A stretch of DNA of 62,598 nt, the filler included. It is 7 parts of 7 records of this genome, joined end to end, with 100 filler letters (N's around TTAATTAATTAA, not from the genome) between each part and the next. Parts side by side here need not be neighbours in the genome. Positions count along the whole stretch, not along the records: positions 56,518 to 62,598 come from DRR723986_9690; 6 more parts are not named here. One strand, written 5' to 3'. Within the stretch, counting starts at the first letter, position 1; every line of letters begins with the position of its first letter. The translations under genes were made by a program, and so were the position numbers. Below are positions 56,518 through 62,598 of the stretch, one piece after another. A model generated the notes under the pieces. The model was not told the origin of the DNA, made no database searches, and saw nothing but the letters and a program-made list of their open reading frames with translations.

Positions 56518-56547
56518 TCGGGGGTTCGAATCCTCCTCGGTCCGCCA
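56518..56547 (+). tRNA. 3' portion of a tRNA (probably Ser), truncated by the contig start
   Basis: GGGGGTTCGAATCCTCC T-arm followed by TCGGTCCG-CCA, with a G discriminator. The anticodon is not visible. Confidence 0.75.
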
Positions 56548-56557
56548 GAATTTCCCG

Positions 56558-56587
56558 AAACCGCGCCGGTCACCCCGGCGCGGTTTT
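56558..56587 (+). terminator. Intrinsic terminator after the tRNA
   Basis: AAACCGCGCCGG-TCACC-CCGGCGCGGTTTT. Confidence 0.85.
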
Positions 56588-56717
56588 CGCTTGTTCGGGG
56601 GGCAGCGTCAGGGTCGTGCGGTCAGGGGCTTCCTCCGGTCGGGGCCGGAGGTCCTGACTGTCGCAAAACCGTCATGCCGGGGCGGCATGGTCACGGGATG
56701 ATTTCGGAGGGCGCCTC

Positions 56718-57179
56718 TTGCCTCGGGTCGGTGAACAGATCGCGGCCTTGCCGATCCGCCGGGATGGCAGGGACAGGGTCAAGGTCCTGATGGTCACCTC
56801 GCGCGATACCGGGCGCTGGGTGATGCCGAAGGGCTGGATGATGGACGGCACGAAGCCCTGGGACGCCGCCGCCATCGAGGCCGTCGAAGAGGCTGGCGCG
56901 CAGGGCCATGTCGGCACCGAGGCGATTGGCCTCTACCGCTATCCCAAGATCATGGACGACGGCAGCATCCTGCCCTGCGTGGTGCGGGTCTATCCTCTGG
57001 TCGTCGAGAGGCTGCTTCGGAACTGGAAGGAGCGCGGGCAACGCCGGCGCAAGTGGTTCTCTCCGAAGGCTGCGGCCAAGCGCGTGGCCGAAGAGGATCT
57101 TGCCGTGCTTCTGCTGACCCTGCAGGACCGCCCGCAGGAGCAGCCGGTGATCCGCGCCCTGCTGAAGGGCGGCCGTTAG
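56718..57179 (+). CDS. NUDIX hydrolase
   Basis: TSRDTGRWVMPKG...AAAIEAVEEAG (Nudix box). Confidence 0.9.
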   Translation: MPRVGEQIAALPIRRDGRDRVKVLMVTSRDTGRWVMPKGWMMDGTKPWDAAAIEAVEEAGAQGHVGTEAIGLYRYPKIMDDGSILPCVVRVYPLVVERLLRNWKERGQRRRKWFSPKAAAKRVAEEDLAVLLLTLQDRPQEQPVIRALLKGGR

Positions 57180-57341
57180 GGCTGCGGCATGCTTGCGGAT
57201 TGCGGCTCCGGGGAGAGGCCCGGGCTGCGGCTGCGATGTGCCCGGAAGGCGCCCTGTAAAGGCTCAGGCCGGGGAGAGGTGCCCGCAAGCGTCGCGCAGA
57301 GGTTCAGGAAAAGTGCCGGGTCCGCAAGCGCCGTAAGGTAC

Positions 57342-57845
57342 TCAGGCCGGGAGGAAGCGTCCGTAGTCGCCGGCGCTGAAGACCAGCGGCTCTCCGTCGC
57401 GGGTGGTGACGCGCGAGACCTGCCCGATCACGACGGAGTGGTCGCCCGCGTCGTGGACCGCCACGCGGCGGCATTCGAACCGCGACAGGCAGCCGTCCAG
57501 CATCGGCGCGCCGTCGTCGTTGTAGGTCCAGTCGTAGCGGCCGAAGGCGTCGCCCTCGCGGGCGAAGTCGAAGCACAGGTCGACCTGATCGGCGGCGAGG
57601 ATGTGGATCGCGAAATGTTCGGCCGCGATGTAATGCGGGTAGCGGGTGGACCGCTTGGCCGGCGACCACAGCACCAGCGGCGGGTCCAGCGAGACGCTGG
57701 AAAAGCTGTTGGCGGTGATCCCCAGCGGCCCGGAGGGCGTCGCGCAGGTGATGACGGTCACGCCGGTCGCAAACCGCCCGAGGGCATCGCGAAAGCTGCG
57801 GGGATCCGCTTGGGCCGGATCGAAGGAATGGGGCATTGCGGTCAT
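57342..57845 (-). CDS. smoA: Flavin reductase (SmoA-like)
   Basis: FRDALGRFATGVTVIT, SVSLDPPLVLWS and GDH. Last gene of the monooxygenase operon. Confidence 0.82.
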   Translation of the reverse strand: MTAMPHSFDPAQADPRSFRDALGRFATGVTVITCATPSGPLGITANSFSSVSLDPPLVLWSPAKRSTRYPHYIAAEHFAIHILAADQVDLCFDFAREGDAFGRYDWTYNDDGAPMLDGCLSRFECRRVAVHDAGDHSVVIGQVSRVTTRDGEPLVFSAGDYGRFLPA

Positions 57846-57854
57846 GTCCGGGCC

Positions 57855-58742
57855 TCAGGGCACCTCGTGTCCGAGGGCGTGGGTGTAGAGTTCAAACCAT
57901 GTCTCCCGGTCCATGGGCACGCGCAGGGCCTCGCCGATGCGCGCGATCCGGGCGGGATCGTTGGTTCCCACTACAGGTAGAATGCGACCAGGATGAGCCA
58001 AGAGCCAGGCAATCGCAACCGATGCGGCATCCGTGCCACAGGCGGCGCCGAGCGCGGCCAGTGTGTCGTGCAGGGCGGCGTGGCCGGGCGAGAAGAGCGC
58101 GCCGCCGCCCAGCGGGGACCATGCCATGACCGGCTGGCCGCGCTGCTGGTGGAAGGAGAGATCGCCGTTGGTCAGCGCGTCCGGGCACAGCAGGCTCAGT
58201 TCGATCTGGTTGGTGACGAGCGGCGCCGTCATCGCCGATTGCAGCAGGTCCACGTCCCATGGCCGGAAGTTCGAGACGCCGACCGCGCGGACCTTGCCCG
58301 AGGCCACCAGCCCGTCCAGCGCCGCGCCGGTGGCGCCCGCGTCCATGAAGGGATCGGGGCGGTGGATCAGCAGCAGGTCGATGCGGTCGGTCTTCATCAG
58401 CCGCAGAGAGGTCTCGACCGAGGTGGCGATATGCGCGGGCGTGGTGTCGTAATGCTTGACCCGGGCGCCCGCGTGGCGCCCGACGGGGGCGACGATGCCG
58501 CATTTCGTGACGATCTCGATCCGGTCGCGCAGGGCGGGCGTCAGGGCGGCGCCAAGGATCTCTTCGGCCTGATAGCCGCCGTAGATGTCGGCCTGATCCA
58601 TGGTGGTGATGCCTTGGTCCAGACAGGCCTGCACCTTGGCCGCGACATGCGCCGGGCTGGTGTCGGCATCGTCGCCCAGCCGCCACATGCCGTAGACGAT
58701 GCGGCTGAAGGTCAGGTCGGGGGCAAGGGTCACGCGGTCCAT
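57855..58742 (-). CDS. smoB: Aldo/keto reductase (SmoB-like 6-oxo-glucose reductase)
   Basis: True start MDRVTLAPDL at 58742 overlaps the monooxygenase stop. Motifs YGMWR, DQADIYG, IVTKCG, LLIHRPD, GVSNF and MAWSPL. Confidence 0.82.
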   Translation of the reverse strand: MDRVTLAPDLTFSRIVYGMWRLGDDADTSPAHVAAKVQACLDQGITTMDQADIYGGYQAEEILGAALTPALRDRIEIVTKCGIVAPVGRHAGARVKHYDTTPAHIATSVETSLRLMKTDRIDLLLIHRPDPFMDAGATGAALDGLVASGKVRAVGVSNFRPWDVDLLQSAMTAPLVTNQIELSLLCPDALTNGDLSFHQQRGQPVMAWSPLGGGALFSPGHAALHDTLAALGAACGTDAASVAIAWLLAHPGRILPVVGTNDPARIARIGEALRVPMDRETWFELYTHALGHEVP

Positions 58743-59896
58743 CAGCGTCGGTCTCCGGCGGCAAGGGGTGTTGCGGGCGGGCCGTCGGGCAGGCGCCCGT
58801 AGGCCTGCGGCAGGGAGCAGGTCTTCATCTGCGGCAGAACGCGGCTGCCGAAGTGGCGGCATTCGTCCAGATGCGGGTAGCCCGACAGGATGAAGGCGCG
58901 GATGCCCATGCGGCGGTACTCTTCGAGTTCCGACAGCACCTGATCGGTCGAGCCGACGATGGCCGCGCCGCAGCCCGACCGCGCCCGGCCGATGCCGGTC
59001 CAGAGGTGGCGTTCCACATAGCCGAACTGGTCCGCGAGATCCCGCGCCCGCGCCTGATGCGCCACCCCCAGAGAGCCGCTGTCCAGCGCGCGTTCGCGGA
59101 TCAGGCGGCCCATCTCGTCGTCGAGTTTCGAGGTGATGTGCTCGGCCCATTCGCGGGCCTCGGCTTCGGTGTCGCGGACGATGACATGCACGCGCAGCCC
59201 GTAGTCCAGCGTCCTGCCGTGACGTTCGGCCACCGCGTTCACGGCCTTCATGCGCTCGGCAATCTGGGCCTTGGGTTCGGGCCACATGAGGTAGACGTCG
59301 CAATGCTGGCCGCACAACTCTAGCGCGTCCGGGGAGTAGCCGCCGAAATACAGCAGCGGCCCGCCGGTCTGCCATGGCCGCGCCGGGTCGGTCGTGAGGC
59401 CGCTGAACTGGTAGACCTCGCCCGCGTAGTCGATGGTGTCGCGGGTCCAGGCTTGCTTGAGGATCTCCACCACCTCGCGCGAGCGGCGGTAGCGGAAGGC
59501 GCTTTCGGCCTTCTCTCCGGGGAAGTCGCTGCTGATGATGTTCACCGTCAGGCGCCCCTGCAGCATGTGGTCCAGCGTCGCCAGCGTGCGCGCCAGCATG
59601 ATCGGCTGCATCTCTCCGCAGCGCACGGCGGCGAGGAAGTTGATGTCGGAGGTGATCGGCGCGCAGCCCGCCACGAAGCTGAGCGTGTCCTGCCCGACCT
59701 GATAGGACGAGGGGCACAGGATGTTGCGAAAGCCCTGCCGTTCGGCCTCTTGCGTGATGGCGGAGCAATGGGCGAAGGACGACCGCAGCCGCCCCTCGGG
59801 CAGGCCGAGAAACTCGTAATCGTCCGAGCAGAGCGCCGCGAACCACGCGACCTCGACGGCGTCCAGATCGGCAGAGGTGATGGGCACGACGGTCAT
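58742..59896 (-). CDS. smoC: Luciferase-like flavin monooxygenase; sulfoquinovose monooxygenase SmoC
   Basis: MTVVPITSADLDAVEVAWFAALCSDDY, NILCPSSYQVGQD, RCGE, YFGGYS and LWTGIGRARSGCG closely match my recollection of Agrobacterium SmoC (Atu3279). The neighbourhood matches smoABCD. Confidence 0.85.
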   Translation of the reverse strand: MTVVPITSADLDAVEVAWFAALCSDDYEFLGLPEGRLRSSFAHCSAITQEAERQGFRNILCPSSYQVGQDTLSFVAGCAPITSDINFLAAVRCGEMQPIMLARTLATLDHMLQGRLTVNIISSDFPGEKAESAFRYRRSREVVEILKQAWTRDTIDYAGEVYQFSGLTTDPARPWQTGGPLLYFGGYSPDALELCGQHCDVYLMWPEPKAQIAERMKAVNAVAERHGRTLDYGLRVHVIVRDTEAEAREWAEHITSKLDDEMGRLIRERALDSGSLGVAHQARARDLADQFGYVERHLWTGIGRARSGCGAAIVGSTDQVLSELEEYRRMGIRAFILSGYPHLDECRHFGSRVLPQMKTCSLPQAYGRLPDGPPATPLAAGDRR

Positions 59897-59977
59897 GGCG
59901 CCTCCGGCGTTGGGATTTCTCTTGCGTAGCAGGCGGGATATTGTAGATCAATACTGTATCAATCCGCGAGGAGCCCG

Positions 59978-60679
59978 ATGCGGGACCGTCACGCCCTGCC
60001 GATCTACCTGCAGATCAGCGAAATGCTGATCCGCGAAATCAACGCCGGGCGGTTGCAGGACGGCGAGCGGCTGCCGCCCGAGCGGGTCTATGCGGCGCGG
60101 CTGGGCATTTCCGTGGGAACCCTGCGCAAGGCGCTGGACGACCTTGCGGAGAAGGGGCTTCTGGCGCGCATCCAGGGGTCCGGCAACTATGTTCGGGCGC
60201 GGGCGGACGTGCAGTCGGTCTATGCCTTCTTCCGGGTCGAGCTGCTGGAGGGCGGGGGCCTGCCCACCGCCGAGGTGCTGTCCATCGACCGGGTGGTGAA
60301 GCCCGAGGGCCTGCCGCCCTTCGGCAAGAGCGCCGAGGCGCATCGCATCCGCCGGCTGCGGCGGCTCAATGGCACGCCTGCGGTGCTCGAGGAGATCTGG
60401 CTGGACGCGTCCTATGCCGCGCGGATCGAGCGGCGCGACCTGTCGGAATCGCTCTACCGGTTCTACCGCGAGCGGCTGCATCTGTGGATCACCCGGGCCG
60501 AGGACCGCATGGGCGTGGAGCCGGTGCCCGACTGGGCGCCCGAGGCCTTTGGTCCGCGCCCCGGCGCCCCCTGCCTCTGCGCCACGCGGGTCAGCTTTGC
60601 ACGCGACGGGGCGCGGGCCGAGGTGTCGCGCGGGTGGATCGACACCACCGTGGCGACCTATGTGGCGCGGCTGACATGA
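59978..60679 (+). CDS. smoD: GntR/HutC-family regulator with UTRA domain (SmoD-like)
   Basis: PIYLQI, RLPPER, SVGTLRKAL and QGSGNYV. Divergent from smoC. Confidence 0.82.
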   Translation: MRDRHALPIYLQISEMLIREINAGRLQDGERLPPERVYAARLGISVGTLRKALDDLAEKGLLARIQGSGNYVRARADVQSVYAFFRVELLEGGGLPTAEVLSIDRVVKPEGLPPFGKSAEAHRIRRLRRLNGTPAVLEEIWLDASYAARIERRDLSESLYRFYRERLHLWITRAEDRMGVEPVPDWAPEAFGPRPGAPCLCATRVSFARDGARAEVSRGWIDTTVATYVARLT

Positions 60680-61761
60680 CCGCGCGACCGCTGAACTACG
60701 GGGTCATCGGCTGCGGCATGATGGGGCAGGAGCATCTGCGCAACATCGCGCTGGTTCCGGGCGCGCGGGTGGCGGCGATCTTCGAGCCCGACGCGGGCAT
60801 GGCCGGGATCGCGCAGGCCATCGCCCCGGAGGCGGTGCCTTGCCCGGACATCGACGCCCTGCTGGCGCTGGACGAGCTGGATTGCCTGCTGGTGGCCAGC
60901 CCCAACCATTGCCACGCCGCGCAGCTCGAAGAGATCGCGCGGCGCCGCCCGCTGCCGGTGATGGTGGAGAAGCCGCTCTATATCCGCGAGGACGAGGCCG
61001 CGCGCGTGGCGGCGCTGGATCTGCCGGTATGGGTGGCGATGGAATACCGCTACATGCCCGCCATTGCGCGCTTTCTCGACCGGATCGAGACGGCAACCGG
61101 CGGCGCCACCATGCTGACCATCCGCGAGCACCGCTTTCCCTTCCTGCCCAAGGTCGGCGACTGGAACCGCTTCAATCGCAACACCGGCGGCACGCTGGTC
61201 GAGAAATGCTGCCATTTCTTCGATCTGATGCGGCTGGCGCTGCGGTCCGACCCGGTGCGGATCATGGCCAGCGGCGGGCAGATGGTGAACCACCTCGACG
61301 AGCGCTACGGCGGCGCGGTGCCGGACATCTGGGACAGCGCCTATGTCATCGTCGATTTCGCCAGCGGCGCGCGCGCCATGCTGGAGCTGTGCATGTACGC
61401 CGAGGGCAGCCGCTTTCAGGAGGATCTGTCCGCCTGCGGGCCGCGAGGCCGGATCGAGGCGCGCGTGCCCGGCCCGGCGCGCTTCTGGTCGCCCGCGCTG
61501 GGGCCCCTGCCGCTGGCCGAGGTCGAGGAGAGCCCGCGCCACCCGCCCGGGCCGCAGGTGACGCGGCTGACGCTCGACCCGGCGCTGATGGCGGCGGGCG
61601 ATCACAACGGGGCGACCTACCACCAGCACCGGGCCTTTGCCGAGGCGGTGCGGGGGCAGGGGCCGTGGTCGGTGGGTCTGGCGGATGGCGCATGGGCGGT
61701 GCGGATGGGTCTGGCGGCGCAGCGCGCGGCCGAAACCGGGCAGGCGGTCCATTTCGAATAA
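60676..61761 (+). CDS. sqgA: Gfo/Idh/MocA-fold protein; probable NAD+-dependent sulfoquinovosidase (GH188)
   Basis: ATGA overlap with smoD. Motifs IGCGMMGQEH, ASPNHCH, VEKP, MEYRY and REHRFPFLPKVGDWNRF...LVEKCCHFFDLM, inside an smo cluster. Confidence 0.72.
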   Translation: MTARPLNYGVIGCGMMGQEHLRNIALVPGARVAAIFEPDAGMAGIAQAIAPEAVPCPDIDALLALDELDCLLVASPNHCHAAQLEEIARRRPLPVMVEKPLYIREDEAARVAALDLPVWVAMEYRYMPAIARFLDRIETATGGATMLTIREHRFPFLPKVGDWNRFNRNTGGTLVEKCCHFFDLMRLALRSDPVRIMASGGQMVNHLDERYGGAVPDIWDSAYVIVDFASGARAMLELCMYAEGSRFQEDLSACGPRGRIEARVPGPARFWSPALGPLPLAEVEESPRHPPGPQVTRLTLDPALMAAGDHNGATYHQHRAFAEAVRGQGPWSVGLADGAWAVRMGLAAQRAAETGQAVHFE

Positions 61762-61956: not shown

Positions 61957-62598
61957 ATGAACGCGATCAATTTCGTGATCCGTACCCGTGCGGGTGCGGT
62001 GGAGCGTGGCTCCGTGGGCGGGGACGAGCAGGCATTCCTGCTCGACGCCGGGACCGGGAACGACATTTCCCTCAACATCGCTCAGGCGGATCTGCGCGGC
62101 TACGACCGTGCCGGAAGCGACCTGCTGATCACGCTGGCGGATGGCCGGGTGATCGTGCTCGAAGGCTACTTCGACGCGGCCGGAACGAGCGAGGCGAACA
62201 GGCTTTTCCTCAGCTCTGACGGGGTGCTGACAGAGGTCGGCTTCATCGAGGCCGAGGGCGGTGCGCTGTTCGCGCAATACGGGCCAAGCGAGACATGGGG
62301 CAAATGGAGCCCCTCGGATGACCTGATCTTCGTCGGCGAGCCGGTGGTGGTGGCGGATGCCCCCTATGTGGCCGAGGACGAGGAGGTCAGCATGCTGGCG
62401 CCCGGTCTCTTGGGCGCAGCGGGGCTTGGCGCTGGCGGCGCGGGCGCCGCGGCGGCGGCCGTGGGCGGCGCCCTCCTGCTGAACGGCGCAGGCGAAGACG
62501 ACGACCGCGACGGTGGCAACGGCAGCGCCGGGGCCGGCGGAGAGGACACCGTGGCTGGCGGGGACGACACCGTGGCCGATGGTGACGACACCGTGGCC
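61957..62598 (+). CDS. N-terminus of a large surface adhesin (BapA prefix-like), truncated
   Basis: Hand translation MNAINFVIRTRAG...ISLNI...YDRAGSDLLITLADGRVIVLEGYF, then an A/G-rich hydrophobic stretch and acidic repeats. Open to the window end. Confidence 0.8.
   Translation, partial: MNAINFVIRTRAGAVERGSVGGDEQAFLLDAGTGNDISLNIAQADLRGYDRAGSDLLITLADGRVIVLEGYFDAAGTSEANRLFLSSDGVLTEVGFIEAEGGALFAQYGPSETWGKWSPSDDLIFVGEPVVVADAPYVAEDEEVSMLAPGLLGAAGLGAGGAGAAAAAVGGALLLNGAGEDDDRDGGNGSAGAGGEDTVAGGDDTVADGDDTVA
62545..62598 (+). repeat. 21-bp (7-aa, DTVAxGD) coding tandem repeat
   Basis: GACACCGTGGC recurs at 62545, 62566 and 62587. Confidence 0.85.

Follow-up and report, generated by a model that had tools for sequence, protein, structure and literature searches.

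The locus and its five genes

The window analysed here, 62,598 nucleotides long, consists of seven contigs with N spacers between them. The genes under study lie on the last contig (positions 56518-62598), where they are predicted to encode the use of the algal sulfur sugar sulfoquinovose through a sulfoquinovose monooxygenase (sulfo-SMO) pathway. Because the contigs are merely joined by spacers, the sequence to the left of 56518 is not genomic context; the neighbouring contig, which carries secA and glycosyltransferase genes, was considered as such and rejected, since a spacer lies between the two and the GC content differs (68.7% for the contig studied, 51-61% for the other six). All five open reading frames are open and intact at the positions and in the orientation given in a preliminary description of this DNA, and their Pfam families agree with it (Table 1); their GC content at third codon positions (GC3) is 0.87-0.91. 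The smoC and smoB genes overlap by one base (TGATG), and the regulator gene gntR and sqgA by four bases (ATGA). Both overlaps are compatible with translational coupling, which had been suggested earlier for the second pair. Among the related loci used for comparison, which are the best 80 of at least 569 confirmed relatives, the four-base gntR/sqgA overlap occurs in five, and short gaps are found in most, start positions having been called automatically. The tRNA-Arg and NUDIX hydrolase genes on the left, together with the gene for a BapA-like adhesin on the right, delimit the cluster, which is therefore complete at this locus. In relatives, type I secretion genes come after the BapA-like adhesin gene.

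Table 1. Features of the contig, in positions of the whole window.
Feature	Position	Strand	Basis or remark
smoA-position flavin reductase, 167 aa	57342-57845	-	PF01613; same place in 66/80 loci
smoB, predicted NADPH-dependent 6-oxo-glucose reductase, aldo/keto reductase fold, 295 aa	57855-58742	-	Match to SmoB 7BBY
smoC, predicted FMNH2/O2-dependent sulfoquinovose monooxygenase, luciferase-like, 384 aa	58742-59896	-	Match to SmoC 7OLF
GntR regulator, HutC-type (GntR + UTRA), SmoD position, 233 aa	59978-60679	+	PF00392 + PF07702; 80/80 loci
sqgA, predicted NAD+-dependent sulfoquinovosidase of GH188, Gfo/Idh/MocA, 361 aa	60676-61761	+	Match to RdSqgA 8ZN9
Direct repeat, ATTGAT twice at an 11-base period, candidate GntR operator	59942-59963	-	Matrix from 80 other loci
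TGCTACGCAAG box, likely -10 region of the smoC promoter	59921-59931	-	Conserved columns 36-46; inferred from spacing
162-base gap, smoA to NUDIX gene	57180-57341	no strand	Same-slot relatives have dctQ-dctM-dctP and a di-haem cytochrome c peroxidase-family gene here
tRNA-Arg(ACG) 3' end at the contig edge and NUDIX hydrolase gene	56518-57179		Same slot as in Sagittula sp. S175
BapA-prefix, Ig-repeat secreted adhesin gene, start only	61957-62598		Right flank

Identification of the encoded enzymes

Among proteins of solved structure, the monooxygenase matches best 7OLF (706 bits) and 7OH2 (704 bits), which are the SmoC proteins of A. tumefaciens and R. oryzae, respectively (Sharma 2022, PMC8795539), against 194 bits for SsuD and 192 bits for an MsuD-type protein. 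Its identity to 7OLF, counted by hand, is about 78% (300/384) and exceeds the 60% cut-off given for SmoC by Ma 2025 (PMC12780224). Residues Y136, S188, W205, R235, H237, Y340 and H342 correspond to Y136, S189, W206, R236, H238, Y341 and H343 of RoSmoC, and all seven are invariant in the 80 relatives. The W206-R236-H238-Y341-H343 sulfonate site is reported to be common to MsuD and is thus not diagnostic alone (PMC8795539). The SsuD profiles remain below their cut-offs (TIGR03565, 236 bits against 518; PRK00719, 234 bits against 510), and an SsuD or MsuD identity was rejected on these profiles and on the bit scores. The monooxygenase is consequently assigned to SmoC rather than to SsuD or another luciferase-like family, as the preliminary description had proposed; SmoC is published as being specific for free sulfoquinovose, HEPES and SQGro (sulfoquinovosyl glycerol) yielding no sulfite.

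For the product of the gene that follows gntR, Pfam and NCBIfam return generic Gfo/Idh/MocA matches only. Its best matches of solved structure are 8ZN9 (491 bits), 8QC3 (352 bits) and 8QC2 (343 bits), the next one scoring 55 bits. The first of these is the structure of RdSqgA, for which NAD+-dependent sulfoquinovosidase activity has been demonstrated (Ma 2025, PMC12780224); ArSqgA and FlSqgA account for the 8QC entries (Kaur 2023, PMC10755693). At the level of sequence, these scores corroborate the earlier assignment of the protein to GH188, and an identity as inositol dehydrogenase was rejected on the same scores and on a match far under the IolG cut-off. The identity to RdSqgA, about 62% (222/355, hand count), passes both published similarity cut-offs for GH188, namely more than 53% within network clusters (Kaur) and 54% (Ma). 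K99, Y124, R153, L157, K159, E176, H180 and H310 correspond to K107, Y136, R166, L170, K172, E189, H193 and H321 of ArSqgA and are invariant in all 80 relatives. This set comprises the catalytic or hydroxyl-binding residues (K99, Y124, E176, H180, H310) and the sulfonate-binding triad (R153, L157 and K159, equivalent in ArSqgA to R166, the backbone of L170, and K172).

It could be argued that the genes encode a general sulfur scavenger of alkanesulfonates, of the SsuD/MsuD type, next to an unrelated Gfo-type sugar dehydrogenase, since conservation of the sulfonate-binding residues extends to MsuD and generic profiles label the two proteins SsuD-like and IolG-like. We regard this as highly improbable in view of the preference of the monooxygenase for SmoC over SsuD, that of the Gfo protein for SqgA over inositol dehydrogenase, and scores well under both the SsuD and the IolG cut-offs.

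The aldo/keto reductase reaches 428 bits with SmoB 7BBY, against 215 with YdhF, at an identity of about 67% (hand count). When the published numbering is mapped by hand through the structure alignment, 11 of the 11 published SmoB residues are kept (D49, Y54, K80, K96, H127, R128, W208, F217, T260, N261 and R265), comprising the aldo/keto reductase tetrad, the glucose-binding lysine and arginine, and the threonine, asparagine and arginine for the 2'-phosphate of NADPH, which is the cofactor of SmoB according to the literature. The flavin reductase in the smoA position and the GntR regulator were assigned solely from family and position; Atu3280 is the sulfo-SMO regulator as described (10.1101/2023.03.31.535182). 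A predicted sulfoquinovose monooxygenase, a sulfoquinovosidase, a flavin reductase and a reductase are thus found in one cluster, which is the composition of a sulfo-SMO system.

Recurrence of the arrangement among relatives

The order and orientation of sqgA-gntR, divergent from smoC-smoB, are kept in all 80 related loci, and it is because of this recurrence that the layout cannot be attributed to chance. The smoA gene is present in 66 of them; five of the other 14 loci end early, and nine are without an adjacent flavin reductase gene (L003, L005, L007, L009, L016, L020, L029, L035 and L046). These nine form one clade in the tree, and in several of them sqgA is followed by a BadF-type kinase gene, or smoB by glucokinase and GH1 genes. 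In 27 of the 80 loci, a gene of the di-haem cytochrome c peroxidase/MauG family comes after the cluster (e.g. L014:12559-13866); its presence could be connected with peroxide formed when flavin turnover is uncoupled, or could reflect mere neighbourhood. A second sample of 251 genomes, evenly drawn from the family and having a few genomes in common with the first, contains 116 with smoC, and 114 of these also have sqgA.

In a tree of four genes (FastTree, midpoint root), the window is the sister of Sagittula sp. S175 (FastTree support 1.00) within a clade whose loci bear a tripartite ATP-independent periplasmic (TRAP) importer. The closest relative, genome G072, has 83.6% DNA identity across 3.9 kb, and a rough ratio of non-synonymous to synonymous substitution rates (dN/dS) of 0.11-0.18 was obtained between the two for smoC, smoA, gntR and sqgA, which are under purifying selection.

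The five-gene arrangement is already published, and the window holds one more copy of this widespread pathway. GH188 is described as near-universal in the sulfo-SMO clusters of the Roseobacter clade (Kaur 2023, PMC10755693); in R. denitrificans, RdsqgA lies upstream of a cluster that includes a TRAP importer, and SqgA, SmoA-D and TRAP are tabulated for many Roseobacteraceae in Supplementary Data 10 (Ma 2025, PMC12780224). The preliminary description was right in placing a GH188 enzyme in the cluster instead of GH31, but the substitution is not a new one (Kaur 2023).

A candidate operator upstream of smoC

A direct repeat, TGAT-N7-TGAT, is found upstream of smoC in all 80 loci, exactly in 78 and with one mismatch in two, and is followed by a conserved box resembling TGCTACGCAAG. 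The longer form TTGAT-N6-TTGAT is present in 76 of the 80 upstream windows and occurs six times in the remaining 1,485,183 bases. With a matrix built from the 80 other loci only, the repeat of the window scores 41.5 of 43.3 possible bits and is the sole match above 10 bits in the 62.6 kb; the same matrix gives 29.7-43.3 bits in 10 of 10 gntR loci of another order, nine of which are new. We propose that the direct repeat is likely the operator of the GntR regulator, a binding that its constant co-occurrence with the regulator gene suggests. The repeat overlaps the likely -35 element of smoC, and part of its conservation may be that of the -35 element itself; a generic scan for sigma-70 promoters found no site, and the smoC promoter is a putative one.

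Across ten TRAP-less genomes, the pattern occurs once in seven, twice in two and 13 times in one, and reversed-pattern controls gave 0. The 13 copies belong to G007 (Gymnodinialimonas mytili, the genome of L020) and are situated at L095, L100 and L102-L112, many of them at gene ends or near unrelated genes; they are possibly a dispersed repeat or the end of a mobile element.

Absence of the TRAP importer from the cluster

The genes dctQ-dctM-dctP follow smoA in 48 of the 80 loci and are missing from 23, the other nine being too short to score (48/71 scorable). No remnant of dctQ, dctM or dctP was detected in the window by tblastn, and no transporter gene lies on the contig between the tRNA-Arg/NUDIX side and the BapA-like gene, so that neither of the importers by which such clusters are recognised, SmoE-H or DctQMP, is found there. 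Seven loci occupy the same slot as the window, with both the NUDIX and the BapA-like flank. Six of them (Marivita, Pelagibaca, Cognatishimia and Thalassococcus) contain the TRAP genes and the peroxidase-family gene, Sagittula sp. S175 has the peroxidase-family gene only, and the window has neither. The sister position of the window to S175, within a clade of TRAP-bearing loci, suggests a loss of the TRAP genes, and the five-gene form is likely derived rather than a self-sufficient minimum. The notion of a 'minimal five-gene unit', put forward earlier, therefore holds in that five genes are complete at this locus, but it overlooked uptake, for which the usual cluster adds three TRAP genes.

The enzymes are intracellular, as described for RdSqgA (Ma 2025, PMC12780224), and in a cluster without TRAP genes the importer must therefore be encoded elsewhere. 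The type of transporter is reported to vary among sulfo-SMO clusters (PMC8795539). A simple relocation of the TRAP genes was rejected for 21 of the 23 TRAP-less genomes; the other two, G020 and G021, do carry an unlinked TRAP importer. In the second sample, 23 of the 251 genomes carry sqgA without smoC, and 22 of these 23 have the same DctP, which suggests that the DctP TRAP importer also serves sulfoquinovose routes other than that of the monooxygenase.

A candidate replacement importer of the ABC type

Second repeat sites in G004 and G006 precede operons for ATP-binding cassette (ABC) importers, whose binding proteins share 48% identity and are relatives of one encoded inside seven smo loci. 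This binding-protein family is found in 20 of the 23 genomes without an adjacent TRAP importer, against 2 of the 48 TRAP-bearing genomes; the three genomes left among the 23 are G020 and G021, which have DctP elsewhere, and a 2.6-Mb assembly that has neither. In the second sample, the 116 smoC genomes divide into 70 with DctP only, 33 with the ABC binding protein only, five with both and eight with neither, when four of 103 DctP matches, at 51% identity or less, are omitted as non-orthologues. These counts are inflated by kinship; among seven independent pairs of the tree, the ABC binding protein and DctP are opposed in about 6.5 (sign test, median p 0.03, range 0.016-0.06).

In the first set, eight ABC copies are in or beside the smo locus (seven shown, one inferred from coordinates) and 12 are unlinked. 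The repeat lies just upstream of four of these 12, and in three of five further unlinked cases that we selected, the best secondary site lies 39-135 bases ahead of the match, so that the repeat precedes the unlinked ABC operon in 7 of 17 cases overall. At three places (L113:7971-16024, L137:7426-16146 and L148:8240-16285), the ABC importer is followed by three tandem Gfo/Idh/MocA genes, the smo cluster being without TRAP; the three proteins match only generic dehydrogenases and structural-genomics proteins. An equivalence of the ABC binding protein with SmoF is unsupported, as sequence searches yielded no SmoF match at E <=1e-10 with three members of the family and none among the 19 matches at E <=0.1 with one member.

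A search of the whole window gave no credible match to the ABC binding protein. DctP orthologues are missing from Sagittula sp. S175 and G072, and the ABC binding protein is present in both; from these two closest relatives, we infer that the window organism would possess the ABC module. We are inclined, with some reserve, to the hypothesis that about three in ten smoC genomes, probably including this organism, import sulfoquinovose or its glycosides by a third type of importer, an ABC system that has no sequence match to SmoF and is often accompanied by three Gfo/Idh/MocA enzymes. It would have replaced TRAP several times independently, and would often stand under a second GntR repeat when far from smo. 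A different proposition, to which we give appreciably less credence, is that the ABC module imports another sugar or sulfosugar glycoside, processed by its own three Gfo/Idh/MocA enzymes, and is loosely tied to smo. This would be consistent with the absence of any SmoF match, with the frequent company of three other Gfo genes and sometimes of an own GntR/FCD regulator, with the 10 of 17 unlinked copies that have no smo-type repeat, and with the presence of the binding protein in 3 of 112 genomes that have neither smoC nor sqgA. The near-exclusion between the module and DctP, which extends to the independent pairs, speaks against it, as mutual exclusion with a sulfoquinovose-binding DctP would not be expected if the substrate were wholly unrelated. 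If the hypothesis of a third importer is true, it would define a SmoD regulon and point to steps by which further sulfosugar glycosides enter the monooxygenase pathway. Neither the SmoD operator nor the ABC importer was found in the literature searched, subscription journals lying outside its coverage.

Proposed pathway and its standing

Judging from sequence, we consider it very probable that the locus is an intact sulfo-SMO cluster of the Roseobacter type, for the hydrolysis of sulfoquinovosyl glycerol (SQGro), cleavage of the C-S bond and recovery of glucose, with likely control by GntR and likely import by an unlinked ABC system. On the basis of the identities and residues described above, we infer that the published chemistry applies to this copy. 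SQGro or sulfoquinovose would be imported into the cell, where SqgA would free sulfoquinovose from SQGro by transient oxidation at C3 with bound NAD+, elimination of the aglycone, hydration and re-reduction. SmoC, with O2 and with FMNH2 supplied by the flavin reductase, would then convert sulfoquinovose into sulfite and 6-oxo-glucose, which SmoB would reduce to glucose with NADPH. It can be hypothesised that the GntR protein acts as a repressor at the direct repeat in the divergent promoter and is released on sensing a sugar of the pathway. The lineage appears to have lost its TRAP importer, and import would likely proceed via an unlinked ABC system, as it seems to do in the two closest relatives.

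Several points weigh against this interpretation. The correspondence of the flavin reductase and the GntR regulator to Atu3277 (SmoA) and Atu3280 (SmoD) is presumed from family and position. The importer of the window organism is a putative one, its known DNA being one 6-kb contig, and the ABC operons of S175 and G072 have no operator-like site. Moreover, in G072, which has the same flanks, most of smoB is lost and no orthologue of it is found elsewhere in the genome, which shows that decay of the cluster is possible in this lineage. In this genome (L147, G072:C1), the layout is NUDIX-smoA...smoC/gntR-sqgA-bapA, and smoB is reduced to broken fragments at about L147:10265-10640. Together with the slot of the window, empty of TRAP and peroxidase genes, this loss would be compatible with an orphaned cluster, in which the loss of TRAP has left little substrate and decay has begun, or in which only sulfoquinovose made inside the cell is used. 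The eight of 116 smoC genomes with neither importer would also fit, all of them being assemblies of 2.1-3.5 Mb that may be incomplete. We judge such an orphaned state improbable: the five frames, all the residues checked and the operator-like site are intact, the dN/dS values are low (0.11-0.18), and 33 of the 41 smoC genomes without DctP have the alternative ABC binding protein. An intact sulfo-SMO cluster with import from elsewhere in the genome is accordingly the interpretation that we retain.

The results on the importer and the operator are side results of modest importance. Nevertheless, uptake of sulfoquinovose in aquatic bacteria is called largely unknown by a 2026 review (PMC13436972), and the candidate ABC binding protein and candidate operator could be targeted specifically and at low cost in strains that are in culture, for instance Sagittula sp. 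S175, Oceaniglobus trochenteri G4 and Nioella species. The TRAP-less genomes would escape any survey for which SmoE-H or TRAP genes are a requirement. The ABC columns of Ma 2025 follow the system of Agrobacterium and have no entries in the rows examined for Roseobacteraceae, and the names Sagittula, Nioella, Roseicyclus, Oceaniglobus, Marivivens, Gymnodinialimonas and Jannaschia do not occur in its supplementary workbook (PMC12780224).

Comparison with known systems

The closest described counterpart is found in Roseobacter denitrificans OCh 114 (RdSqgA RD1_2308, 8ZN9; RdDctP RD1_2315), where, as in the window, a GH188 gene stands beside smoA-D and no GH31 gene is present in the cluster. The window SqgA keeps the seven residues named for RdSqgA (PMC12780224), at the identity of about 62% given above. 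Unlike that of R. denitrificans, the window locus is without TRAP genes, and its two closest relatives are without a DctP orthologue in their whole genomes. With the smoA-I cluster of A. tumefaciens C58 (Atu3277-Atu3285; PMC8795539), the window shares SmoC (about 78%) and SmoB (about 67%) with their active-site residues, the flavin reductase and the regulator; it differs in having the GH188 enzyme SqgA for the GH31 enzyme SmoI, and in the absence of the SmoE-H ABC importer from the locus. With the GH188 enzymes ArSqgA and FlSqgA (8QC2/3/5/6/8; PMC10755693), the predicted SqgA shares the family of the Rossmann and alpha/beta fold, the eight residues and the sulfo-SMO context. No difference of substance from the GH188 family was noted, and the window SqgA can be regarded as a member of its Roseobacter branch.

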